A DNA stretch of 64,000 nt from Patescibacteria group bacterium (GCA_028714495.1 JAQTMH010000001.1:179814-243813); one strand, 5' to 3'. Numbered from the stretch's first letter, positions 1 through 51,785 are shown. Translations and numbers: made by a program. Notes: generated by a model not told the origin, from the letters alone.

Positions 1-1165
1 CGATCACTATGGCCCTCCTCGACAAAGTTGATGACACCCAACTCGGCCTCGCACCCTGTGTCGGCCTCTTGGTCTTCCGTGATCAGGGCGGTATCATCAT
101 CGGTGCCCAGAAGCTTGTTCCCTCATCAGCCCAGCGTTGAGACCAAACAGCGCCTGTCAGCCTGCGCTTTTCAAAGGCTGACTTTTTTATAAAAAAACGG
201 GCTGGCTCGGAAATGAGCAGCCCGGTTGTGCGATTTTGAGAGACCTTCGTCTCTAGTACCATGGTCTTGGCCGCATCAGCGTGCCGCACCGCCCGCACTT
301 CACAACCTCGAGTACACCCTCACGGAAACGCATCTTGATTGTCGGATTGCGATACTGCGAACAGCTGCTACAAGCGCCAGAGATGTTGAAGGCCATTGGC
401 AGATCACTGAATGAAGGCAGGGGTGGCGGTGGCGGCGGAACAAACGCCATCGGATAGCCGATCTGCATCCACTAAAAGCCACCGTTTGGATGGTCTACTC
501 GGTATCCAATCCTATGACCGGTACCGCCTCGAGTCGTTGGCAAACTTCCGTTATGCGTTACCACTTGAAGGGCCATCAGTACCTCCTTTGGTTAGACCAG
601 GTTTCCGTAACCCGGGAAAGGCCGTCCCATGCGACGCAGATGCCGACAACGGGCATAGTGCAGCGCCCCACAAAAAGCATGAAAGACACGACTGCCACGA
701 AACTCACGTACACGCCGGCGCTTGCGATTGGCTTCCTGTATGACTGGCTCAATCTTGCTCGATCAGCGCTGTCAGCAAAGTCATAGGCGGCCCTGGCAAA
801 GGAAGCAGTTTCAAATCGGCTTGATCAATGGTAACACTGTATCCCTGCCGGTCATAGAGAATGTCCAATAGATCTCTCGGATACCACATTTCACACCTCG
901 CTATTGATATGGCCTGGCACGGCTTGTCTGTGAAAACATTGAACGAACATCTACCCTCTCGGCAGGCTACCGGACATTTTCCGGCAACGCCCAAAGTTAA
1001 ACATAATTATATATAACAAGTCAAGTCAATATTTTGTAGGCGAGGTTGGCCAATCTTATCAAAACTTATTTCGTAAGCGAGCATTAACGCTCGCCTTATC
1101 CAATTTTGATTGATTCATTGGCTTATTTGTATTATTATTTATAAGGAAACTGATAATAAACCCAG

Positions 1166-1876: not shown

Positions 1877-4090
1877 ATGCTACTTAAGTCCAGCAATAAG
1901 CTTTTGATAGGCTTTCTTGCGCTATTGGGTATCACTCTGGCCCTAGGCGCCGGAGTTGAAGTACTGGCCAAGCCCGCCGGCTTAAAAACTCAAACTTTCA
2001 AACAATCATCTCTGGCTGACGTCAATAGTTCAGCTTTTTTGTTTGATTCAAACTATACTTCTCCCACTCTGACCACCGAAGAAAAAATGAACGTCCTCGG
2101 CTTCAAATGGCAGGGTGATAAAAACGCGCGCTTCTGGATTCAAACTTCGCGCGATGAAAACTGGTCAGACTGGCTAAGGGTGCCCCAAATGGAAGGCCTC
2201 GCCGGCAAAAGCGATGAATATAATTACTCTGATTTGATTTTTTTCCCGGATACGAAAAGTTTCCGCTATCGCTATGAATCAGCCGAGGAAATAACCGGTG
2301 TTGAGGCGATAACCCTTAACCCAAGTGCTGGCCGAAATGTCCTAGGTTTTCTGAGGGCGCTGATTCCCGGAGCCAAGGCTGAATTAACGGTCATACCCCG
2401 AACCGAATGGGGCGCTGATGAAACAATTTCCACCTGGGAACCGGAATACGCCGAGCCGGTAAAATTCATCATCCACCACACGGCCGGGTCTGATGGATCG
2501 GTTGAACCTGAAGGGAGCCTGAGAGCTATTCAATACTGGCACGCCGTGGTCATGGGCTGGGGCGATATCGGCTACAATTACATCATCGACGCCAGTGGGA
2601 AAGTCTATGAGGGACGAAAAGGCGGCGACGGCGCGATCGGCGCCCACGCCTATCGCAATAGTACCTGCAATGAGCAACGTTTCGGCGGCAGCGACACGGG
2701 GATTGATTTCAACCGCGGGACAATCGGCATCGCCGTCATGGGTAACTATGAAGACAACGCACTGCCGGAAAGTTTGCTCGAGCCGATTGCCAATCTCATT
2801 GCGGAGAAATCTAAAGTTTTTGGGATTGAGCCGAATGGCGCGAGCGATTTTCAAGATTTAATAAACCTCCCAAATATATCCAGCCACCAGGATGTTGACT
2901 GCACACTCTGCCCGGGGAAAAACCTCTACGCCAGCCTGCCTCAAATCCGCGAACTGGCCCAAAATCTGTACCAAGCCGGCGGTGGCGTTCAACCGATCGT
3001 TTCAGCCAGGCTGACCAACACAAGCATCAGTCAATTTGAGCTCAAGGCCGGCGCGACTACCACTCTCTGGGCTGACTTCGTAAATACCGGCAATACCACT
3101 TGGCATAGCTATGGCAGTCCGCCGGTTCTATCCACGGCCAGCCCTGCTTCGGTTCTAAAAGCCGATTCCTGGGTTTCCAGCGCCACTGTCGCCCGACTAA
3201 CCACACCCAATGTCGCGCCAGGTGAAACCGGCCGTTTCGAATTCACTGTCGCGGCTCCAAATGACCGGCTGGAGGCAAGCGAAGTTTTTTATCTGGCTTA
3301 TAACGACCTGCCTCTGGCCGAAAGCGGCTTTGAGATAAAAGTCCAGGTCACCGGCCTGGAGCGGGCGGCGAAATTGGTTTCAGCAGACGTGAAAAAGGCT
3401 TCGTTCCTTGGGGCCCGTCTTAAAACCGTTCTAAAATATGAAAACCTCGGCACTAAGACTTGGACCCCGGCCGACACCTTCTTAAATATCTACGACCTGG
3501 GCGATAAAATCAGCCGCTACCGCGATAAATCGTGGAATGATGATTCCGGTAAAATTGCCCTCAAAGAGGCTTCGGTGCCAGCTGGCGGAACCGGCACTTT
3601 TGAATTCTACGAAATCTCTCCGAATCAAACCGGCCTTTACCGGCAAATTTTCCGTCTCTTTAACGAGAACCGGGACATAATTAATTCTTCCGCGTCGCTC
3701 ATTTCCCGGGTTGATTCTCTGTTTCGAGCCGAGCTGGTTTCAACTGATTTGCCTCTGGCTGTCAAAGCCGGCTGGCAGCCGACAGTCACGCTGAAATTTA
3801 AAAATACCGGCGGGGCCACCTGGGATAAGAATCTACGGCTCCAGATCTTTGACCAGGGCTTGAAAACCAGCCCCTTCTACAGCTCCACCTGGTCAACAGC
3901 CTCGGGCAATATCCGCTTAAAAGAAACAAGCGTTAAGCCAGGTGAAATTGGAACTTTCATCTTTAAGCTAAAATCGCCAAAACAGGTTGGACTCTTTCGC
4001 CACGTCTTTCGTCTCAAAAGCCAGAGCTATCCTTATAGTATCGAGGGCGGTGAAGTTACCCGGCTGACTCGGGTTGATCGGGTAATTTAA
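1877..4090 (+). CDS. N-acetylmuramoyl-L-alanine amidase (Amidase_2/PGRP domain) with N-terminal signal/TM and four C-terminal ~100-aa repeats
   Basis: Signal-like N-terminus MLLKSSNKLLIGFLALLGITLALGAG; amidase_2 core EWGADETISTW...IIHHTAGSDG...YWHAVVMGWGDIGYNYIIDASGKVYEGRKGG; internally repeated modules (LKAGATTTLWADFVNTGNTTW..., LKYENLGTKTWTP..., LKFKNTGGATWDK...). Confidence 0.75.
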   Translation: MLLKSSNKLLIGFLALLGITLALGAGVEVLAKPAGLKTQTFKQSSLADVNSSAFLFDSNYTSPTLTTEEKMNVLGFKWQGDKNARFWIQTSRDENWSDWLRVPQMEGLAGKSDEYNYSDLIFFPDTKSFRYRYESAEEITGVEAITLNPSAGRNVLGFLRALIPGAKAELTVIPRTEWGADETISTWEPEYAEPVKFIIHHTAGSDGSVEPEGSLRAIQYWHAVVMGWGDIGYNYIIDASGKVYEGRKGGDGAIGAHAYRNSTCNEQRFGGSDTGIDFNRGTIGIAVMGNYEDNALPESLLEPIANLIAEKSKVFGIEPNGASDFQDLINLPNISSHQDVDCTLCPGKNLYASLPQIRELAQNLYQAGGGVQPIVSARLTNTSISQFELKAGATTTLWADFVNTGNTTWHSYGSPPVLSTASPASVLKADSWVSSATVARLTTPNVAPGETGRFEFTVAAPNDRLEASEVFYLAYNDLPLAESGFEIKVQVTGLERAAKLVSADVKKASFLGARLKTVLKYENLGTKTWTPADTFLNIYDLGDKISRYRDKSWNDDSGKIALKEASVPAGGTGTFEFYEISPNQTGLYRQIFRLFNENRDIINSSASLISRVDSLFRAELVSTDLPLAVKAGWQPTVTLKFKNTGGATWDKNLRLQIFDQGLKTSPFYSSTWSTASGNIRLKETSVKPGEIGTFIFKLKSPKQVGLFRHVFRLKSQSYPYSIEGGEVTRLTRVDRVI

Positions 4091-4117
4091 TCACTTGCCT
4101 AAATTATAATAAAAAAA

Positions 4118-4150
4118 GAGGACCTGGTTGGAAAAACCTGGGTCCTTTGA
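4118..4150 (+). terminator. putative intrinsic terminator after amidase gene
   Basis: aggacctgg...cctgggtcct stem followed by tttgattt. Confidence 0.4.
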
Positions 4151-4188
4151 TTTCTCGAAGCGGAAGCTGAATTTCAGGTCAGATCAGT

Positions 4189-4470
4189 CTAAACCTGGGT
4201 CCGCCGGGCCTTCCTGCCCCTCTTTCCATTCTGCCGGGGAATCCTGGTCCTTACTGGTACAGCTCCGTTGCGGCCAGACGGTTGGCCTCCACCACTAGCT
4301 CGACGGTTCTCTTCGCGGATTCGCTCGTAGATCTCCTCGCGATGAACTGCTACGTGAGGCGGCGCGTCAATGCCGAGCTTCACTTGCCCGCCCTTGATAT
4401 CCAAAATGGTGACCTTGATCTTGTCGCCGATCCGGATATTCTCCCCCAACTTCCGTGTAAGAATGAGCAT
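4189..4470 (-). CDS. csrA: carbon storage regulator CsrA homolog with long basic/Gly-rich C-terminal extension
   Basis: [51 protein letters not shown] matches CsrA core; track ORF begins 9 codons upstream (MSDEHEEES) but MLIL is the conserved start; sits in a G+C-richer patch. Confidence 0.7.
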
Positions 4471-4743
4471 ACTTTCCTCCTCGTGTTCATCTGACACCTC
4501 TGTCCCTGAGGCATCCGCCCGACAGTCTATGTCATGAGATAAACTACCCCTCTGGTCGAACGCGTCATGCGGTGAAATACCGCTAATCTATGGGAAAGCC
4601 ATATCGGCCTAATAGCTAGTGGATTATAACAAGCTAAAACCCCATGTCAAGCGACTTTTAAAGGCAAAAAATGCCTTTACTTTGAGTCAAAAATATGGTA
4701 ATCTTGAATACGTATAAATTTATATCCACATATCAATTTTTTT

Positions 4744-5379
4744 ATGTACCTATCCTGGCTCGGCCTCAATTGCTTCAAAATTCAGACTAAAGATAGCGTT
4801 ATTATTACCGACCCTTTTCAGGACCAAACCGGCCTAAAAATGCCCCGTCTTCAGGCTGAATTGGTGCTTGTCACAGAGCCGGAAAATTCTCAATTTAACA
4901 ATATCCAAAGGCTTTCAGGCGAACCTTTCATAATTACTGGGGCTGGCGAGTATGAAATCAAGCAAATCTTCATCCGAGGCCTGGCCGACCAATTAAACGG
5001 ACAGCCGCTGCAGCCTGGCTCTAAAACTCTGTACTTTTTTGAAATCGAAAAAATCGCCTTTGGCCATTTAGGCGCCATCGACCATCTTTTAACAGACGCT
5101 CAGCTGGAAATCTTTGAGGATGTAGACGTTTTATTGGTTCCGATTGGCGGCAACCCCTCGCTCACCGCTGAAAAGGCCGCTGAGGTCATCAGCCAGATTG
5201 AGCCGAGAATCGTCATCCCAATGTACTACAAAACGCCCGGCCTAAAAGTCAATCTTCAGCCTCTGCAAAAATTTCTCACGGTCATGGGCATAAAAACTCC
5301 GGAGGAGTCGTCCCGGCTGAAGCTTACCCGCAATGAACTGCCTCAGGACGAAACTCGAACAATTATTCTCAAACCCTAA
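4744..5379 (+). CDS. MBL-fold metal-dependent hydrolase (UPF0173-like)
   Basis: N-terminal MYLSWLGLNCFKIQTKDSVIITDPF and FGHLGAIDH pattern typical of beta-lactamase-fold hydrolases. Confidence 0.6.
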   Translation: MYLSWLGLNCFKIQTKDSVIITDPFQDQTGLKMPRLQAELVLVTEPENSQFNNIQRLSGEPFIITGAGEYEIKQIFIRGLADQLNGQPLQPGSKTLYFFEIEKIAFGHLGAIDHLLTDAQLEIFEDVDVLLVPIGGNPSLTAEKAAEVISQIEPRIVIPMYYKTPGLKVNLQPLQKFLTVMGIKTPEESSRLKLTRNELPQDETRTIILKP

Positions 5380-5384
5380 GCCAT

Positions 5385-5834
5385 ATGCCGACTGCTAAAA
5401 CGAAAAAAACCATCAAAAGATCGCAGGCGCTAAGAGTTCGGGTAGTTAAAGAAGATCGATTGACCCGGCCTGAAGCTAAGGCTAATCCCCCGACCCTGAT
5501 CCAAGCACAAACCCAGGTGAAAAAAGAAAATAAAATCGAAAAACCGGGGCGAGTCTTTAAGCAAAAACAATACGCCTGGATTGGCGCCACTGCCAGTTTT
5601 GTGATTATCATGGTTGCCTGGCTGACCCTGGGTCAATATTTGCCCGGTCGCCACAGGTCAAATGAGGCTGATCAATCTCTAAAATCGCTGGGTAATTTAT
5701 TTTCAAAAATCACCACTGATTTTGATCAACACGCTGAAGATATCCGTTCGCAGATTTTTGGCGTAAAGAATTCTGCCAACAGCGAAGAGATTGTAAACCT
5801 GGAACAGCGCGTCTTCCCCCAATTTAATAAATAA
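5385..5834 (+). CDS. hypothetical membrane-anchored protein
   Basis: Lys-rich N-terminus then one TM (WIGATASFVIIMVAWLTLG). Confidence 0.35.
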   Translation: MPTAKTKKTIKRSQALRVRVVKEDRLTRPEAKANPPTLIQAQTQVKKENKIEKPGRVFKQKQYAWIGATASFVIIMVAWLTLGQYLPGRHRSNEADQSLKSLGNLFSKITTDFDQHAEDIRSQIFGVKNSANSEEIVNLEQRVFPQFNK

Positions 5835-5861: not shown

Positions 5862-8309
5862 ATGGCTGAATCAATCGGAAAAGTAGCGCCCCGCCAAATT
5901 ACCGAAGAAATGAAGGAGTCTTATCTTGACTACGCCATGTCGGTAATAGTCGCCCGAGCCTTGCCTGATGTCCGCGACGGCCTGAAACCGGTTCACCGCC
6001 GCATCCTTTACGCCATGTGGGGCATCGGTCTCAGGCCCGGTTCAAAATTCAGAAAATCCGCCACGGTTGTCGGCGAAGTCTTGGGTAAATACCATCCCCA
6101 CGGCGACACCGCGGTTTATGATTCAATGGTCAGGCTGGCTCAAACCTTTTCTCTCCGCTATCCGCTGGTAGAGGGCCAGGGCAATTTCGGTTCAATAGAC
6201 GGGGATAACGCCGCGGCCATGCGCTACACTGAATCTCGTCTGGCCAAGATCTCCGAGGAGATGCTTTTTAATATTGAGAAAAAGACGGTTAATTTTATTC
6301 CAAACTACGACGGCTCCCAGGAAGAGCCCCAAGTCATGCCCGCCAGATTGCCCAATCTCTTGCTCAATGGCACTATGGGCATCGCCGTGGGCATGGCTAC
6401 CAACATCCCGCCTCATAATCTGGGCGAGGTGGTCGACGCGATAATCTGCCTGATTGATAATCCGAGTGCCTCGATCGAAGACTTGATGGAATTTGTGAAA
6501 GGACCCGATTTCCCGACCGGCGCCCAGATTTTCGGACTGAGCGACATCAAACAAGCCTATGCCACCGGCAAAGGCAGTGTGGTGATACGGTCAAAGGCAG
6601 AAATCGTCGAAGATAAATCAGGCCGCTTCAATATCATTGTCACCGAAATCCCCTACCAGGTAAATAAATCTCAGCTTCTGGAACACATTGCCAATCTGGT
6701 CCAGGAAAAGAAAATCGACGGCATTAAAGACCTGCGCGACGAATCTGACCGAGACGGCATCCGAATCGTGATCGAACTGAAAAAAGAAGCCTATCCAAAA
6801 AAGACTCTTAACCGCCTTTTTGACCTGACCCAGCTCCAGGATACTTTTCACTCCAATATGCTGGCTTTGGTCGACGGGATCCAGCCAAGAGTCCTAACTC
6901 TGAAAATGATTCTCGAGGAATATCTGAAGCACCAGCAAGAGGTGACCCGGCGCTATTTGACTTTTGATCTGGAACGGGCCAAGGAACGCGCTCACGTGCT
7001 TGAGGGCCTGAAAATCGCCCTGAAACAACTTGACCCGGTCATCCGAACGATCAAAAAGTCGAAAGATCGCGAGGAAGCAAAAGTAAACCTGATGAAACGC
7101 TTTCGACTGAGCGAGATCCAGAGTTTAGCCATTCTGGAAATGAAGCTTTCCCAGCTCGCCAACCTTGAGCAGCAAAAAATCTTGGATGAACTCAAGGAAA
7201 AGCTCAAACTGATCGCCGAATTAAAGTCTCTTTTGGCCTCGCCAAAAAAGATGCTGGCAGTGATAAAAAAAGACTTGCTCGAAATGAAAGCCAAATTCAA
7301 TAATCCCCGGCGCACCCAGGTCTTCCCCAACCCCGTCGATAAATTCACCCAGGAAGATCTGATTCCCAATGTCTCGACAATTGTTATGACTACTCGCGAC
7401 GGGTATATCAAACGAGTCGAACCGACGGCTTTCAAGACCCAGGGTCGCGGCGGCAAAGGCGTAATCGGCCTAACTACCAAGGAAGAAGACATGGTGGAGC
7501 ATTTCTTCACCACCATGACTCACGCCGACCTTCTCTTTTTCACTACCAAGGGCCGCGTTTTCCAGATGAAAACCTACGACATTCCCCAGGCCAGCCGCAC
7601 GGCTAAAGGCCAGGCGATCGTCAACTTTTTACAGCTCCCCAGCGATGAAAAGATTTCTGTGGTCCTGCCGCTTTCCGAACTGGGCGAATACAAATATCTC
7701 ACCATGGTGACCCGCGGCGGGGTGATTAAGAAAGTTGATATCGAAGAATTTACAAAGGTTCGCCGCTCCGGCCTCATCGCCATCCATATCAAACCAGGCG
7801 ACACGCTTGAATGGGTCAAGCCGTCAATCGGCCAGGATGATCTGATTCTGGTCAGCCGCGAGGGCAAGGCCATTCATTTCCGGGAAAAAGACGTCCGGCC
7901 CATGGGCCGAAGCGCCGCCGGCGTCCGCGGCATCAGGCTGAAAAAGGGCGATGAGGTAAGCGGCATGGATGTAATTCCTCAGGGAAAGATTCAAATTCAC
8001 GAACAGCTTTTGGTCGTAATGGAGAACGGCTTTGGCAAAAGGACCAATTTAAAGAATTATCGGATCCAGGGACGCGGCGGCACAGGCATTAAAACAGCCC
8101 ATATTACCCCGAAAACCGGTAAGATTGTTTCAGCCTTTATCGTCAATGCCAAACTGGAAAAAGAAGATTTAATAATCATGTCTGGCAAGGGACAAGTCAT
8201 CCGACTGCCCTTGAAATCCATCTCGGTTCTTGGCCGGGCAACCCAGGGAGTGCGTTTGATGCGCTTCTCAGAAGCGAATGATAAGGTCGCGTCAGTTACC
8301 TTCATTTAA
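5862..8309 (+). CDS. gyrA: DNA gyrase subunit A
   Basis: Canonical GyrA N-terminus: [34 protein letters not shown]; C-terminal beta-pinwheel repeats. Confidence 0.95.
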
Positions 8310-9303: not shown

Positions 9304-9789
9304 ATGAGCCAGCGAGTCAGCGAATTGATTTGGAACGGAAACCTTCGTCTTCAGCGAGGCTTGGACTTCTGGATTGAGCGGATCGGTGCTATCCGGCGTC
9401 GGAATATTGGCCATTTCGTTCTTGGCGCCTTTATTTCCGGCGTTGTTTCGCTCGTGTTCTACTTCTTCATTTTGGTTATCCTGGCGCTCTTTCTTGGAAT
9501 CGACATCTTCACCAATTTCCTGCCCAGATACTCCTTCTATGGGCTGGTATTGGTCAACACAGTTGTGGCCGGTCTTTCACTGGCGGTAAATCTGGGGCAA
9601 TGCGGCTTGAACGTCACTGGACGGCAGACTTTCCTTACCGCGTTTGTTCTTTTGGCAGTTCTGTCAGTCATCATCGTACTGTCCGGCCTAATGGCCAACG
9701 TCGAGAATCTGGGACACCCAGCACTCTGGATTTTCCTGGTTGCCTTGGGCGGTTTGATTCCGGCTTGTTCAGTCAAGACCTTTCTGTAA
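9304..9789 (+). CDS. hypothetical integral membrane protein
   Basis: aggagg RBS; four predicted TM segments. Confidence 0.45.
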   Translation: MSQRVSELIWNGNLRLQRGLDFWIERIGAIRRRNIGHFVLGAFISGVVSLVFYFFILVILALFLGIDIFTNFLPRYSFYGLVLVNTVVAGLSLAVNLGQCGLNVTGRQTFLTAFVLLAVLSVIIVLSGLMANVENLGHPALWIFLVALGGLIPACSVKTFL

Positions 9790-12281: not shown

Positions 12282-13172
12282 ATGGGTTTCAGAGAACGAC
12301 TGGAACAGGCCTGGGCTCTGCAAAACAGTTTGGTCTGCGTCGGGCTGGACACCGATGTCCGGAAAATACCACTTCATCTTCGCGACCGGCCAGAGCATCT
12401 GGCAGTGCGCCGATTCAACGAAGACATTGTCAGGGCCTGCGCGCCATACTGTTCCGTGTTCAAGCTTCAGTTTGCCTTTTATCTCGAGGCTGGTCTGGTC
12501 CAAGTGGTGATCGACACCATCGCTTTCATCCGGCAGCACTACCCCAACCATGTGATCATTCTGGATGCCAAGTGGGGTGATGTGAAAGAAACGGCCAAGG
12601 CCTACCAGCGTTTTGGTAGCGGTCTCCTGAATTACGACGCAGTCACGCTCTGGCCAGGTACTGGTTCAGAATCAATGCGCCCCTTCTTCGATGATCCCGA
12701 GCACGGCGCCATCTTCGTCTGCCGGACTTCCAACCCAGGTAGCCCGGAACTACAGGATGCCCCTGTTTTCATTGGCTATGACGACGGCACCAGGGCCGCG
12801 AAAACCGAACCCTACTGGTTCTGGCAGGGCAAGCAAATTGCCCACTGGAATCAGCATGGCAATGTCGGACTGGTCATGGGCGCCACCTTCCCGGGCGAAC
12901 TCCGGCAGATGCGCGAAGCCGTGGGTGATGATATGTTCTCCCTGAATCCCGGCATTGGCGCACAAACAAAAGAGCAAGGAATCGAAAACCCAATCCAGGC
13001 CGCAGTCGAAGCCGGCCAGGACTCGAGTGGAAAAGGTATGATCATTAATTCCTCGCGCGGCATCATCTTTGCCTCTTCAGGTGAAGACTATGCTGAAGCC
13101 GCAGCTCGGGAAACCGAACGGCTCCGCGATGAGATCAACCGCTTCCGTATCCGACAGGAGGTGACTCGATGA
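12282..13172 (+). CDS. pyrF: orotidine 5'-phosphate decarboxylase, type 2-like
   Basis: LVCVGLDTD and DAKWGDV motifs correspond to OMPdecase LCVGLDP / DAKRGDI; aagggggt RBS; G+C-rich. Confidence 0.7.
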   Translation: MGFRERLEQAWALQNSLVCVGLDTDVRKIPLHLRDRPEHLAVRRFNEDIVRACAPYCSVFKLQFAFYLEAGLVQVVIDTIAFIRQHYPNHVIILDAKWGDVKETAKAYQRFGSGLLNYDAVTLWPGTGSESMRPFFDDPEHGAIFVCRTSNPGSPELQDAPVFIGYDDGTRAAKTEPYWFWQGKQIAHWNQHGNVGLVMGATFPGELRQMREAVGDDMFSLNPGIGAQTKEQGIENPIQAAVEAGQDSSGKGMIINSSRGIIFASSGEDYAEAAARETERLRDEINRFRIRQEVTR

Positions 13173-14245: not shown

Positions 14246-14738
14246 GGTACTAGATAAACTCATTTGATCCTAAACAATAAATTTTATTACCTAATCTTAG
14301 CCAAAATACCCTGTTGATAACTTATTGGCTCTAGGCATTGACAATTTGTCCGACATCTTCTATGCTTGGGGGCTTAGAAGACAAAACAAAATCTTTACAA
14401 TATAATATTAATAGTATCCGTGAGGCGATGAACTGCAGCCTGAATCTGGTCGCTTTCCCCCTAGAGTTTATTAAACTTTTGGGGGCGGGCTGCGGGGAGC
14501 TAGTAGCGAAACCGACATGGCGGAGGAAGTCCTTCGATACCAAAAACTGCCGCCGCCTCACGCCCAAGAGGCGTTTTTTGTTGGCCTGACCTTATTACCG
14601 GTTGCCTTTAGTGAAATACCTAAAGACAGCCGGTTTGTAAGGTTACTAAGCTCTTTGACAACACGGTGTAAGCGGAACAAAACGCCGAAATACAGCGCGA
14701 AGTTGTTTTCGGGGTTACCACAAAAAGGAGGACCGGTC

Positions 14739-15452
14739 ATGAAGCGCCTGTTTGTATTCTGTTTGGTGTTGACGTCCGTTCTGCTGGCCACGACGGCGAG
14801 TGGAGCGGATCGAGCCTTGGTTGAACGTACGCTGGTCTGGGTGGAGGGCAATCCCATTCCGCCGGACAGCACGCTCAATTCGTCAGGCTATCAATGGGGT
14901 GTTGCTCAAGACTCCCTGATTACCGTCAACGGATTCGTTGCCCAGGTTGCGCGCAAGCCGCCGGTAAAGGCCAAGGTGTATGCTGACACGCCCTACGGCC
15001 GTATGTGCGAGCGGGCTTTTGCCGCGGCAGTTTCGGCACGGGACCAGGGCAAGAACGATTGGGAAGCCGCTCAGGCTGGCGCGGCGGTCATGGAGAACGA
15101 ACGCAGCTTAGTCCGCTCAGCCAGTGTGATCGAGGGTGGATGGGAAGTCGAGTACACCAACGGCGAATCCGAATCATTCGAGCTGGGTCCGCCCGAGAAC
15201 AGAGGATCGCAAACGCCCCAAGAGAAGGCGGCGTTCTACCAGGAAGTTACCGACCAGGGCAAAATGATTGTGCTCGCATGGAATGGGGAGTGCAGATGGT
15301 TTCTGACACCGGCCAGCAGGGTGCTGTGGAACGAGCAGATTCTACGAGTATGGGACAACGAGCCGAACCCGCCTGGCCCTATGCCGCCACAGTTGGTGAG
15401 CCTGTTCTGTGATCCTACGCCCCTCAACCGCGAGAGCCACAAGGAGGAGTAA
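14739..15452 (+). CDS. secreted hypothetical protein (G+C-rich island)
   Basis: aaaaaggagga RBS; signal peptide MKRLFVFCLVLTSVLLATTASGA; track ORF starts earlier at 14517 but signal peptide and RBS favour 14739. Confidence 0.5.
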   Translation: MKRLFVFCLVLTSVLLATTASGADRALVERTLVWVEGNPIPPDSTLNSSGYQWGVAQDSLITVNGFVAQVARKPPVKAKVYADTPYGRMCERAFAAAVSARDQGKNDWEAAQAGAAVMENERSLVRSASVIEGGWEVEYTNGESESFELGPPENRGSQTPQEKAAFYQEVTDQGKMIVLAWNGECRWFLTPASRVLWNEQILRVWDNEPNPPGPMPPQLVSLFCDPTPLNRESHKEE

Positions 15453-15455
15453 GCC

Positions 15456-18284
15456 ATGAAGATCTCATTGATCTTGCTTGCGCTCCTTCTGATGTTCGGT
15501 TCAGCGGGAGCGACCAACCGCGATCCGGTCGGATCCTCGGCACTCCAGTATCATCCCTACGAATTTGGACTTGGGTGGGACGGACAGGAGTTCATCAATC
15601 TGGCGATTTCACAGGGACGAGACGCCATAGACTTCCATAACACCAGCGGAGGAAGCCAGATCCCGCAATGTGGTCTCGATCTGTTCAAGTGGTACCTAAA
15701 CGGCGGTCAAAGCGGATTCCGCGCGATTATCGAGGTGAGTACTCACGGCAACTCAAACCAGGCGACACATGAGGCCTTCCGCGACTCTACGAACAGAGAA
15801 ACCGCCTGGACATACCACTTACAGAACGGCTGGAGCACGACTGAGATCATCAGAACACAGTCGGTTGACGGCTATGGTATCGGCATCAAGGCGCCGGCCT
15901 TAGCCAGCCTATTCGACGGCGGCCACCAGGAGCTGGTCATCTATCACTCCTGCCATGCCTATGACTGGTTGAACACCGGGTACAACGATGCTCGGTGCGA
16001 GATCGGCTGTGTGGATTCAGACAACTGCCTGGTCAGTTACTTCTTGACACTGTTCAACCGGTTGGATGGACAGGAAGGACTGGAAAAGCGGGCGGTCAAT
16101 CAAGCGCTGTCTGGCTTAACATACCTCGGGTATCAGGGGAATGGCGAGACTGTGCTGGCCGCTTGCGTAACCAATGTCCTTCCGGCAGCCGGAACCGTGC
16201 TCACGGGAAACACTCAAGCAACTGTGTCTTTCGACACCGAGATGGACAATGATTTGTCATTCCGCTGGCCAGTAGTGATCGGAGACAATGCCCTAGTTGA
16301 TAATGTTGTTTGGTATCCGGACTACCTTGAGTTCACGCTGATACCCTATCGCGTCGGGCCAGTGACAGTTGAAATCCAGGCCTTGAGCAAGGGTGTAAAC
16401 GAACTGGATGGAAATCAAGTGCCGGTCGGTACGAACGGACAGGGTCCCAGCGAAGATCACTATGTGTTTTCGCTGACCAGCGCCGTCGATAACCCGAACA
16501 CTGCGGTGAGCTTTGAAGGCGCCGGAGCTTTCTCGGCCGAGGACGGCACCCACGTCTGGTGGGTAACCGATCCTGAGCTGGGTTCGCAACAGTTCGAAGT
16601 GTACGGCGGCGTAAACCGGTCACAACTCCTGGCTTCAGTGCCGGCGAGCGGCGGACCGGACCGGTCGTACTTCTACGAACTGGTCGTGCCGCCAAGCGAG
16701 TCGTATGAGGTGGTTGAGATCGACAATGATCCAACCACTGAATACTCGACCCGGCCGTTCTATCCGAGCGGCCCACCCGCGAACCTGGACCTTCTGCGCT
16801 CCATGAATGCCAAGTACGGCACGTGGACGCCCTGGGTATGGGAGGAGGGCGGACGGGATAACCCCATCTATGAACCGACCAACTTCGTCTACTACTCATC
16901 TCGGTCCGACTTTCTCGATCTCTGCCAGCCGGTCATCGACTGGTGGGAGGGCAAAGGTTTCACGTCGCAGGTAGTGACGGGAACCGAAAACCCCTACGAC
17001 TGCCAAGCGGTAGCAGAAGCTGTGTATAACGCGGCGATTGAGCATGAACTTCCCTGGCTGCCGTTTCTGGTGATCGTGGGCGAGGCCAACCAAGGGTCAG
17101 TCCCGGCTTACAATATAGTCGGGACAATCTACGTGGATGACGAAGACGATCAGTGTTACTGGTCAAGCTGCGCTTCTGATGCCAGCATCGTCGAGTTCGA
17201 TGGAGATAAGATCCCGAACATGCCGTGGAGTAGAGTGCCCGTTCACACGACCACGGAGCTGCAGTATGAAGTTACCTCGACCATGGAGTATTACGGACGG
17301 CTCCGGCCACAATCTCTGAGGGCAGTCATCTTCGACGGCGACCTGAACCCCAGCTGCAATCAGATGATCGAGCCGCGGGCCACGCTGACCATGATCCAAA
17401 CCCAGCTTGAAGCCGCAGGCATATCGACTGTGATGCTGAACGATTCTGACATTGAAGACTGCGGCGACATGGAAACACGGCACGACTGGGCTTGCGCGGA
17501 AATCAACGCCGGCATCACCGAACTGCTAGGCAATGGGTTTGGCACGAGCCGGTCGATTCTGCCAGGCTATTTCCAGGAAAAGATGTTCAATCCGGTCTTT
17601 ACCATGGCGGACCTGCCACGGTTGCAACGGATCGTGGTCGAATTTCCGGGTTGTGGCATGGGTGACATAGACCGGGACAATCCCTCCTATTACCCGTCCA
17701 TACCAAAGATGTATCTGACCGCGAATCCGGCCAACGGGACAACAGCAGTTGCCTGGATATCGCATTCCCGCGGCGGCCTACAATCTCTGCATCTGGCATT
17801 GGCTCGCGCCTATTTCGAGCAACGTGTTCGGTACCTGTATCGAACCGTGCAGGAAAACAACTTCCGGGCAATCCGACAGCTGGGTACGGAAAATCCGGCT
17901 GCTCGTGACTATCTCTTGATGGCCGGCGCCTATGGTTTCCCGGCGCGCATCGTCGAGATGTACGAAGCAGGAGCAACGCCGGAAACGGTTGCGGCCGATA
18001 TTCCGACCGGCTTGAGCATTAGTCCGAATCCGGTAGTCAGCAGCCTCAGCCATCTGTCTTTCGGGATGAAGGGCTATGGCCGCGTCGATCTGAAGCTCTA
18101 TGATATTCAGGGACGCTGTCAGCGGACCCTGGCTGACCGAGTTGTTCTTGAGCCCGGACTACACCGTATCGCGTGGGATGGACGCGACGACGCGGGTCGA
18201 TTGCTGTCAGCTGGCGTATACTACGCCCGGCTGTCGGTCAACCGGCATGATCGCGCGGCGGCGAAATTCGTGCTCGTGCGCTAG
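15456..18284 (+). CDS. large secreted protein with putative His/Cys (CD-clan-like) peptidase region and C-terminal beta-sandwich sorting-type domain (FlgD-Ig / Por_Secre_tail-like)
   Basis: aaggagg RBS; signal peptide MKISLILLALLLMFGSAGA; STHGN...VIYHSCHAYDW; C-terminus ...GRVDLKLYDIQGRCQRTLADRVVLEPGLHRIAWDGRDDAGRLLSAGVYYARL. Confidence 0.55.
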   Translation: MKISLILLALLLMFGSAGATNRDPVGSSALQYHPYEFGLGWDGQEFINLAISQGRDAIDFHNTSGGSQIPQCGLDLFKWYLNGGQSGFRAIIEVSTHGNSNQATHEAFRDSTNRETAWTYHLQNGWSTTEIIRTQSVDGYGIGIKAPALASLFDGGHQELVIYHSCHAYDWLNTGYNDARCEIGCVDSDNCLVSYFLTLFNRLDGQEGLEKRAVNQALSGLTYLGYQGNGETVLAACVTNVLPAAGTVLTGNTQATVSFDTEMDNDLSFRWPVVIGDNALVDNVVWYPDYLEFTLIPYRVGPVTVEIQALSKGVNELDGNQVPVGTNGQGPSEDHYVFSLTSAVDNPNTAVSFEGAGAFSAEDGTHVWWVTDPELGSQQFEVYGGVNRSQLLASVPASGGPDRSYFYELVVPPSESYEVVEIDNDPTTEYSTRPFYPSGPPANLDLLRSMNAKYGTWTPWVWEEGGRDNPIYEPTNFVYYSSRSDFLDLCQPVIDWWEGKGFTSQVVTGTENPYDCQAVAEAVYNAAIEHELPWLPFLVIVGEANQGSVPAYNIVGTIYVDDEDDQCYWSSCASDASIVEFDGDKIPNMPWSRVPVHTTTELQYEVTSTMEYYGRLRPQSLRAVIFDGDLNPSCNQMIEPRATLTMIQTQLEAAGISTVMLNDSDIEDCGDMETRHDWACAEINAGITELLGNGFGTSRSILPGYFQEKMFNPVFTMADLPRLQRIVVEFPGCGMGDIDRDNPSYYPSIPKMYLTANPANGTTAVAWISHSRGGLQSLHLALARAYFEQRVRYLYRTVQENNFRAIRQLGTENPAARDYLLMAGAYGFPARIVEMYEAGATPETVAADIPTGLSISPNPVVSSLSHLSFGMKGYGRVDLKLYDIQGRCQRTLADRVVLEPGLHRIAWDGRDDAGRLLSAGVYYARLSVNRHDRAAAKFVLVR

Positions 18285-28258: not shown

Positions 28259-28299
28259 TGGTGGGCGATCCAGGAGTCGAACCTGGGACCTCGTCATTA
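28259..28299 (-). pseudogene. tRNA 3'-half fragment (Ile-like), CCA encoded, no matching 5' half
   Basis: taatgacgag gtc ccagg ttcgact cctgg atcgccc a cca; closely resembles the 3' half of tRNA-Ile(GAT) at 28396-28472 but with a different acceptor. Confidence 0.45.
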
Positions 28300-28334
28300 C
28301 CCGCCCGACTGCTCCGCACTCGGAGGCGGGCGGG
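28300..28334. repeat. 35-nt palindromic element sharing termini with the tRNA-Pro intervening sequence
   Basis: cccgcccgactgctccgcactcggaggcgggcggg; termini cccgcccg/cgggcggg; same cccgcccgactgc start as the 276-nt insertion; abuts the tRNA 3' half in its anticodon-loop position. Confidence 0.5.
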
Positions 28335-28395
28335 TGACCCCGCACAACTCGCCAGAGCTCGTTTGCGGGGCAGGCGCGCTGAACTCACAGGCGGA

Positions 28396-28472
28396 TGGTG
28401 GGCATGGGAGGAGTCGAACCTCCGACCTCGTCATTATCAGTGACGCGCTCTAACCATCTGAGCTACATGCCC
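28396..28472 (-). tRNA. tRNA-Ile(GAT), CCA encoded
   Basis: gggcatg ta gctc agatggtta gagc g cgtca ctgataa tgacg aggtc ggagg ttcgact cctcc catgccc a cca; flanked by ggcggatggtg / caccatccgcc helix. Confidence 0.85.
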
Positions 28473-42071: not shown

Positions 42072-42148
42072 ATGGTGGGCATGGATGGATTTGAACCATC
42101 GACCCCCGTCTTATAAGGGCGGTGCTCTAACCGCTGAGCTACATGCCC
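42072..42148 (-). tRNA. tRNA-Ile with TAT anticodon (tentative), CCA encoded
   Basis: gggcatg ta gctc agcggtta gagc a ccgcc cttataa gacgg gggtc gatgg ttcaaat ccatc catgccc a cca; same acceptor as tRNA-Ile(GAT); one C-A mismatch in anticodon stem. Confidence 0.6.
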
Positions 42149-51439: not shown

Positions 51440-51630
51440 CCTTCGGGATGGGCCATCTTTTCGACCGAAGATTGGCAATATTTAATAGGGTATCCTGACT
51501 TATGGAGGAATTGCTCGTTGCGCCTTCCCACCCAGCCCATCACGATAGGCTGGACAGTGGCTTTTCACAACTTGCTTCTCCACTTACAGTGGCGGGACCG
51601 CGCTGGATTTTCACCAGCTTCCCCTTATAT
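51440..51630 (-). promoter_or_regulatory. cobalamin riboswitch
   Basis: minus-strand reading ggaagctggtgaaaatccagcgcggtcccgccactgtaagtggagaagc...aagtcaggataccc; diagnostic gguGAAAAUCC / CGGUCCCGCCACUGU core and B12-box-like AAGTCAGGA. Confidence 0.75.
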
Positions 51631-51785
51631 GTCTAATTGTTAATAAACTGCGACTTGACCTGTTGTTTTTTAATTCTAGTCTAAGCGTATTATGATGTCA
51701 AATTAGAATTCAAAATTCTAAATGTTAAATCATTGTTTCCGCCTCTCGACCCTGCTCTAGGCGGCTTCCTTCATTTTTAATTCTC

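Follow-up and report, generated by a model that had tools for sequence, protein, structure and literature searches.

CsrA is among the best-studied bacterial post-transcriptional regulators, and its known control is exerted either by small RNA sponges or by the protein FliW. The family fold is a five-stranded intertwined homodimer with a C-terminal α helix, in which the strands β1 and β5 pair only in the dimer. Within these two strands, the RNA-binding residues are said to have been identified by Mercante et al. in 2006 as L2, L4, R6, R/K7, V42, R44, and I47. In enterobacteria and pseudomonads, CsrA, RsmA, and RsmE are antagonised by small RNAs of the CsrB/RsmZ type. R44 is critical for RNA binding, and the residues that contact FliW, V/I51 and N55, have been shown in C. 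jejuni and B. subtilis (PMC7829508). The H. pylori protein binds FliW2 when shortened to residues 1-63 but not when shortened to 1-58, indicating that residues 59-63 are required (PMC11905337), and C. jejuni CsrA can do without residues 61-75 even when it binds FliW (PMC7829508). The main text of a survey of about 7500 CsrA homologues is silent on basic tails and on Patescibacteria (PMC13443453). In ultra-small groundwater prokaryotes, csrA was found among the highly expressed genes (PMC9938205), and in Patescibacteria the gene has been reported to be highly expressed but is unstudied.

The stretch of DNA analysed here (hereafter the window) comprises 64 kb from a Patescibacteria group bacterium and carries csrA on its minus strand, at positions 4189-4470, as a 93-aa open reading frame that starts with an ATG at 4470 and ends with a TAG stop codon at 4189-4191. 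An identical protein, encoded on a contig of 343,867 bp, is present in the databases as MDD5341867.1, [quoted passage not shown]. The first-pass annotation had recognised a genuine CsrA domain at the N-terminus, and this is confirmed by the Pfam model CsrA (PF02599), which spans residues 1-53 from end to end with 91.2 bits and an E-value of 3.9e-26 (cut-off 27), and by two NCBIfam CsrA equivalogs, both of which are passed (NF002469, 99.3 with a cut-off of 73; TIGR00202, 93.7 with a cut-off of 70.1). In addition, CsrA/RsmE chains from the PDB match the window protein at E-values of about 1e-18. The listed RNA-binding residues of β1 and β5 are all present, including K7, V42, and I47, and M1, L2, L4, R6, R44, and E46 are invariant across the CsrA alignment. 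The AlphaFold2 model of the monomer, obtained with a 27-sequence alignment, shows strands at residues 11-14, 18-26, and 29-35 and a helix at residues 44-59, with a mean pLDDT of 62. The CsrA core, with its β strands and this helix, can be delimited to residues 1-58 (4297-4470, minus strand), and it is followed by a basic Gly/Arg/Pro tail at residues 59-93 (4192-4296, minus strand).

The signals expected of an expressed gene surround the reading frame. The Shine-Dalgarno sequence GGAGG (4476-4480, minus strand) lies 5 nt upstream of the ATG. A promoter consensus scan predicted, from the sequence, a −35 hexamer TTGACA at 4645-4650 and a −10 hexamer TATAAT at 4623-4628, the latter in the extended form TGnTATAAT, both on the minus strand; this predicted promoter agrees in 12/12 positions with the sigma-70 consensus TTGACA-16 nt-TATAAT and has the TG preceding the −10 hexamer. 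The position of the promoter would place the transcription start so as to leave a 5′ leader of ~145 nt (4471-4616, minus strand). On the 3′ side, a terminator-like hairpin, GGACCCAGG-TTTTTCCAA-CCAGGTCC followed by TCTTTTTTT, occupies 4111-4145 on the minus strand; having a 9-nt loop and an imperfect stem, it was not reported by the consensus scan. We can conclude that csrA is an intact single-gene unit with its own promoter, Shine-Dalgarno sequence, and terminator, and that its core carries all of the RNA-binding residues.

Among the described systems, the FliW-partnered CsrA proteins of B. subtilis, G. thermodenitrificans (5DMB), C. jejuni, and H. pylori are similar to the window protein, which matches the chain 5dmb_D at an E-value of 9e-18 and keeps both of the FliW-contact residues, I51 and N55. 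The homologue set, defined as the best 119 among 5.8 billion proteins, consists almost entirely of proteins of 84-117 aa that are 88-97% identical to the window protein over residues 1-60. Many of these 119 are labelled Candidatus Eisenbacteria and are referred to here as clade A; their csrA genes sit in flgK-flgL-fliW-csrA-flagellin-fliS-fliD clusters. The identity of 88-97% to CsrA proteins encoded in fliW clusters indicates that the core in the window is of the FliW-partnered type. At the DNA level, the window csrA shows 87.9% identity to that of the Eisenbacteria locus L002 over the first 165 nt without a gap, and the similarity is confined to the stretch between the start codon and about codon 60. 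Unlike the FliW-partnered proteins, however, the window gene has no fliW or flagellar gene nearby, and its product is devoid of the sequence ASG-[VI]S[PA]xxL[KR]EVAxxF, instead of which it has a disordered tail with a net charge of +10.

The lack of a flagellar or FliW partner gene in the window had been remarked on in the first-pass annotation and was reproduced with both search methods: FliW, flagellin, FlgK, FlgL, FliS, and FliD, used as queries from the loci of the relatives, gave no match in the 64-kb window by phmmer or tblastn. FliW and flagellar genes are likewise absent among the called genes of the 20-kb locus L164, which comes from a second metagenome-assembled genome (MAG), and the part of the genome examined for fliW amounts to the 64 kb together with about 6 kb from L164. 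Two candidates were rejected in these searches. A possible fliW remnant upstream of csrA, sought in 4000-4900 with 18 FliW queries (tblastn, E-values up to 50), yielded noise only, and a weak, repeated match at 12570-12707 falls inside an OMP-decarboxylase gene. Judged by the three features that define the FliW-partnered subfamily, the window CsrA has the contact residues I51 and N55 and is without the other two, the C-terminal extension and the linkage to fliW.

The shorter CsrA, RsmA, and RsmE proteins of enterobacteria and pseudomonads (61-70 aa) share the fold family and the RNA-binding residues, and the structures 1y00, 2bti, 1vpz, and 2jpp match the window protein at E-values of about 1e-17 to 1e-18. 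Compared to the 61-aa enterobacterial CsrA, however, the window protein has a 35-aa tail past the helix and a core on the FliW-type branch. A further difference from these systems is that no known Rfam family of the decoy small RNAs CsrB, CsrC, or RsmX/Y/Z was matched at the gathering score in the 64-kb window. A stand-alone csrA among housekeeping genes, with no fliW and with a long tail, is also found in clade B, which includes Kerfeldbacteria, other Patescibacteria-labelled MAGs, and Eisenbacteria. In contrast to the window, the clade B genes lie at other loci (gatB-csrA-miaA or beside uvrA), their cores are ~73% identical to that of the window, and their tails are low-complexity sequences rich in Pro, Gly, Glu, and Lys that are near neutral. 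The mobile CsrA paralogues of Legionella plasmids and ICEs, Pseudomonas and Vibrio phages, and Xanthomonas plasmids resemble the window gene in being CsrA copies located away from a flagellar operon, in some cases with a longer C-terminus (80 residues of H16 can be aligned), but they show only 45-65% identity, whereas the window gene is chromosomal and syntenic and has no mobility genes around it.

Some observations on these other CsrA proteins can be added. The Eisenbacteria-like genomes (GTDB loci L007-L086) contain three CsrA clades, of which clade A is linked to fliW, clade B is stand-alone with tails rich in P, G, E, and K, and clade C has a FliS-like gene just downstream. An identical or nearly identical clade B core occurs in MAGs labelled Kerfeldbacteria, Saccharimonadaceae, Verrucomicrobiia, Gammaproteobacteria, and Eisenbacteria; the locus with the Saccharimonadaceae label, L061, has a GC content of 70.7%, which suggests either mis-binning or wide transfer. 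Tandem proteins of 140-310 aa with two or four CsrA domains (P0087, P0132, P0135, P0167, P0199, and P0230) are possibly single-chain CsrA dimers.

The history of the gene in its present place was approached through its neighbours. The locus has the order amidase, csrA, MBL-fold, hypothetical protein, and gyrA, with the amidase gene convergent with csrA, and a search of metagenomes with the adjacent MBL-fold protein gave 74 related loci. In the two nearest of them, L088 and L089, and also in L164, csrA is found at the same position and on the same strand. The MBL-fold proteins of L088 and L089 are 66% and 63% identical to that of the window, respectively, and the GyrA of L089 is 81% identical. 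The entire intergenic unit can be aligned across the window, L088, and L089, with the terminator included, and a hairpin with a T-run stands 3′ of csrA at all three of these loci. The flanks of ~70 more distant MBL-fold loci, most of which have gyrA, contain no csrA. The occupation of the same site in sister lineages and its absence from the distant loci suggest that csrA was gained once, before the lineages split, and has been kept since then. The CsrA cores of L088 and L089 (48.6 and 55.3 bits with Pfam, respectively) score slightly best against clade A and are far more diverged than the window core, which would require strong rate heterogeneity or, otherwise, a second and later import of the core into the window lineage. 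The L088 protein (230-529, minus strand) has two peculiarities of its own, namely a 6-aa acidic insertion, EGEGEE, in the β1-β2 region and the loss of ~7 residues, most of the C-terminal helix, while its RNA-binding motifs in β1 and β5 are intact. The 5′ part of the L088 gene was recovered in identical form from a second metagenome as L090, which represents the same organism.

Substitution rates between the window core and the clade A genes (dN of 0.02-0.07, and dS from 0.75 to saturated) are as those within clade A, and they point to a core that is under strong purifying selection. A recent donor was rejected on the same basis, because dS is at least 0.75 to each of the clade A genes, the same as within clade A, and thus no sampled lineage is the recent donor. 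The csrA genes of the window and L164 differ at 17 nt, all within codons 9-52, with 11 codons changed synonymously and 4 replacements (G9K, K17Q, D24G, and D35E), and the 299 nt upstream contain 1 difference. The possibility that clade A had donated the core by gene conversion was also considered and rejected: the two alleles are approximately equidistant from clade A (identities of 0.871 and 0.848) and similar patches are found in the amidase gene and gyrA, which argues for mosaic recombination among strains and against import from another phylum. The clustering of the differences between the window and L164, 14-17 per 130 nt in comparison with a mean of 3.3, is seen in patches at 3800-4000 (the Ig-like region of the amidase), 4320-4470 (the csrA core), and 7044-7173 (gyrA).

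The tail is the part of the protein that had attracted attention, as an arginine-rich extension of ~45 aa not seen in canonical CsrA. It is indeed present and non-canonical, although its length is 35-40 aa. Residues 59-93 contain 8 R, 2 K, 7 G, 3 P, and no acidic residue, resulting in a net charge of +10, the highest among the 216 CsrA tails collected, for which the median is +2. The tail is predicted to be disordered, with residues 61-93 having AlphaFold2 pLDDT values below 50 and no secondary structure. What is unusual is this particular tail and not the possession of one, because C-terminal extensions are normal in the nearest relatives. A conserved tail of 26-30 aa, ASG-[VI]S[PA]xxL[KR][ED]VAxxF and then a basic cluster (KKKRR), is found in 115/119 of them, and a tail HMM built from the relatives gives the window protein 1.0 bit, compared to a median of 47.5 bits in the relatives themselves.

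In the syntenic lineages, the tail carries a net charge of +12 in L088 and +7 in L089. The L088 protein, of 99 aa, finishes with ...RLKPTPSSGTSQTLRPIWPRTRNPRGKKARKIHREARPRV, and both its reading frame and that of the window end in ...GTT TAG. The tails of the window and L088 (PRTRNPRGKKARK) align with a Smith-Waterman score of 39, have in common the motif PRxxxxRG[RK]KAR[RK], and show 47% nucleotide identity in the aligned codons. The tail of L089 is basic and hydrophobic. As to whether the tail is conserved in a subclade, its basicity recurs in both L088 and L089, but the similarity in sequence is weak for L088 (p = 0.012 with composition-preserving shuffles) and the L089 tail is otherwise unrelated. 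The tails of clade A are moderately basic as well (+5 to +7), so that some of the basicity may be ancestral and not the product of new selection. Moreover, the identity of the window and L164 tails leaves zero dN/dS information in the tail, and a 35-codon open frame is estimated to occur by chance in ~1 in 3 cases in 60%-GC DNA, which makes the open reading frame weak evidence of selection. There is, overall, moderate evidence that the basicity of the tail has been maintained across the lineages. Searches with the L088 and L089 proteins, in the exhaustive representative library, and in viral contigs detected no more proteins with a tail of the window type. To date, the variant has been seen in the window organism and in the second MAG, with related or merely basic tails in L088 and L089, respectively; the gene represents a lineage-specific form of a well-known regulator and is ordinary in kind.

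The explanation that we prefer overall, and regard as probable, is that the window csrA is a functional gene standing alone in a small clade of Patescibacteria, from an old acquisition of the FliW type, whose partner is gone and whose extension has turned into a basic disordered tail. A FliW-type csrA would have been transferred horizontally, presumably in the direction from an Eisenbacteria-like flagellated bacterium and presumably at a time when the lineages of the window, L088, and L089 had not yet diverged, and would then have been inherited vertically at one locus. With the FliW partner absent, the conserved C-terminal extension of the subfamily may have been lost, and an intrinsically disordered, strongly basic tail may have taken its place. 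The CsrA dimer is presumably still formed and, as in the family, would bind GGA in or near ribosome-binding sites to repress translation; its own GGA-rich leader may be among the targets, thereby providing autoregulation. The two tails would exit beside the two RNA-binding pockets, where non-specific electrostatic contacts with the RNA backbone are what they would most likely make, and such contacts would raise the affinity or widen the footprint. That the tail actually serves as a basic arm adding backbone contacts is a tentative proposal, in which we have less confidence than in the explanation as a whole. The suggestion in the first-pass annotation that, with such a tail, the protein may act on different targets is likewise tentative. 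If the tail aids RNA binding, it would illustrate one route by which a partner-dependent regulator becomes autonomous in a reduced genome, and it would offer a handle on post-transcriptional control in Patescibacteria.

The tail could instead be functionless, a neutral Arg/Gly-rich remnant that has been drifting since the loss of FliW on an otherwise ordinary CsrA, a possibility that we regard as unlikely but worth serious consideration. Drift would be in agreement with the predicted disorder and with the tails of the three lineages being barely alignable, whereas the terminal motif common to the window and L088 exceeds the expectation from composition (p = 0.012). The persistence of a 35-codon open frame is fairly probable in GC-rich DNA, but truncation is seen in no lineage even though a stop codon is one mutation away. 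Odd or Arg-rich tails are also known sporadically, as singletons on unrelated CsrA cores (P0203 and P0271), and the corresponding part of C. jejuni CsrA can be dispensed with even for FliW binding (PMC7829508); on the other side, 3/3 of the syntenic orthologues have a long basic tail (+7 to +12), highest among the 216. If the tail is neutral, it would be an example of C-terminal drift following partner loss. Under either reading of the tail, a FliW-type core survives under purifying selection without nearby FliW or flagellar genes while the part after the helix is remodelled, and the interest is limited to specialists.

The preferred reading includes an autoregulatory loop, and the leader of csrA contains 4 GGA motifs in its last 80 nt, of which 2 are in predicted hairpin loops and 2 are in the Shine-Dalgarno region, a count that is in the top 5 of 46 genes. 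Such a GGA-rich leader makes autoregulation of csrA plausible and is reminiscent of the autoregulation of E. coli csrA. A search for GGA-motif hairpins in 5′ untranslated regions, which had been proposed as a check, could be carried out by GGA counts in the 46 leaders; it gave as candidates csrA itself and a membrane-protein gene at 9304-9789, the other leader with several GGA motifs in loops, but no target that is statistically solid. An extended form of the regulatory scheme is that csrA constitutes a one-gene Csr circuit of a flagellum-less episymbiont with a reduced genome, in which the Arg-rich tail would be a second, sequence-independent RNA-binding arm and the own mRNA, through its leader and its tail segment, would function as the sponge, with no protein or small RNA antagonist. 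We consider this extended scheme improbable.

Selection might also have acted on the RNA that encodes the tail. According to this idea, the GGA-dense 3′ part of the gene (4141-4340) would be a self-titrating CsrA sponge, in cis or in trans, and the arginine and glycine residues would be partly a by-product. The densest occurrence of A(N)GGA on the minus strand of the window is indeed at 4141-4340, with 9 per 200 nt compared to a mean of 1.35 (sd 1.46), but the tail regions of L088 and L089 contain only 2 and 1 GGA, respectively. In the tail coding sequence, 7 GGA are found, where 3.3 are expected from the amino acids and the codon usage of the window (p = 0.026), and the rare codon AGG is used for 4/8 of the tail arginines compared to 10% in the genes of the window; the significance, however, is modest and was noticed post hoc. 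Because the GGA density is not conserved in L088 and L089, an RNA-level role is a long shot, and we judge it to be very unlikely. On the plus strand, the densest A(N)GGA is at 1681-1880, also with 9 per 200 nt, and this stretch spans the 3′ end of an open reading frame at 1166-1810 and the promoter and leader of the amidase gene.

The G+C-rich patch in which csrA had been placed is real but mild. At 0.578, the GC content of the gene exceeds the window mean of 0.480 (sd 0.056 for segments of 282 nt) and ranks among the highest 3.9% of these segments; ~20 other stretches attain the same level. Part of the excess is a matter of amino-acid composition, since the GC excess of the tail is largely at second codon positions (0.69), as a result of its Arg, Gly, and Pro codons. 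The GC3 of the core is 0.69, compared to a gene mean of 0.54, and is attained by 8% of 58-codon windows in the other genes of the window, whereas the GC3 of clade A, 0.84-0.92, is far above it. The csrA genes of L088 and L089 show the same mild GC excess over their neighbours. This pattern fits an old, partly ameliorated acquisition together with the composition of the tail, and not a fresh island.

On the basis of the same patch, csrA had been proposed to be a mobile-element-borne regulator, that is, recent horizontal or mobile-element cargo. This proposal is largely refuted, and what probability remains to it is very small. A local GC of 0.58-0.65 in comparison with 0.48 could mark such cargo, but a GC3 of 0.69 is far under that of clade A and is met by host-gene windows. 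The core is almost identical to CsrA proteins from another phylum; nevertheless, its dS to the donor-like genes is at least 0.75 and not below the dS within the donor clade. Phage- and plasmid-borne CsrA genes are known, but the best phage, plasmid, and viral CsrA proteins are at most 65% identical to the window protein over about 43 aa. Although csrA is a lone gene on the strand opposite to its neighbours, it lies at a conserved locus between housekeeping genes, and no integrase, transposase, phage, or conjugation gene adjoins it. Furthermore, the flanks, including the terminator, align between lineages, and the same site is occupied in lineages with identities of 81% for GyrA and 63-66% for the MBL-fold protein, which places the acquisition before their split.

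Elsewhere in the window, the region 14412-18284, with a GC content of 0.56-0.575 compared to 0.48, makes a stronger case for acquired DNA than the csrA patch and is also longer. It contains a c-di-GMP-II-GAG riboswitch hit (45.2 bits; the gathering score is 40), immediately followed by a 311-aa open reading frame without a Pfam match and by a 942-aa protein that has a Peptidase_C25 domain and, at its C-terminus, a weak FlgD_ig domain. The first part of the window, 1-1000, has a GC content of 0.54, only short open reading frames, and no Rfam family, and in its counterpart in L164 all of the called genes are small (46 and 107 aa).

An assembly artefact as the source of the tail, which had been named as the condition under which its description would fail, is contradicted by independent sequences. 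Over its full 3577 bp, contig L006 of the Logan assembly of SRR22315508 agrees at 100% identity with 2192-5768 of the window, and it covers both flanks of csrA. The second MAG, GCA_028717285.1 (MDD5567071.1, locus L164), is from another assembly and 97.4% identical to the window over 6.5 kb, with a tail that is identical at the nucleotide level. An HMM of 117 tails of relatives gives at most 0.2 bits in all three frames of the tail DNA, and an alignment with shuffles found no similarity to the tail-coding DNA of 13 relatives, so that no single-base correction restores the canonical end; a match of EGQEG to the relatives' tail in frame +2 was dismissed as chance. A sequencing or assembly frameshift in a canonical CsrA of about 60 or about 86 aa, for which the out-of-frame stops right after codon 58 (frame +2 reads SS*) and the lack of a close match to the tail in 5.8 billion proteins outside its own cluster of two MAG proteins might speak, is hardly credible in view of these two assemblies, the frames devoid of the relatives' tail, and the comparable basic tail that L088 encodes in the same frame up to the same ...GTT TAG end.

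The remaining observations concern other features of the window. Within a tRNA gene cluster, ARAGORN predicts at 28259-28354 (minus strand) a 96-nt tRNA-like gene with the four-base anticodon 'ccga', which is not reported by the Rfam tRNA model. A tRNA-Ile(UAU) gene at 42073-42148 (minus strand) is present besides that of tRNA-Ile(GAU) at 28396-28472, representing an uncommon mode of AUA reading. Lastly, a cobalamin riboswitch with a score of 88.5 bits is found at 51468-51659 (minus strand) in this Patescibacteria-labelled genome.
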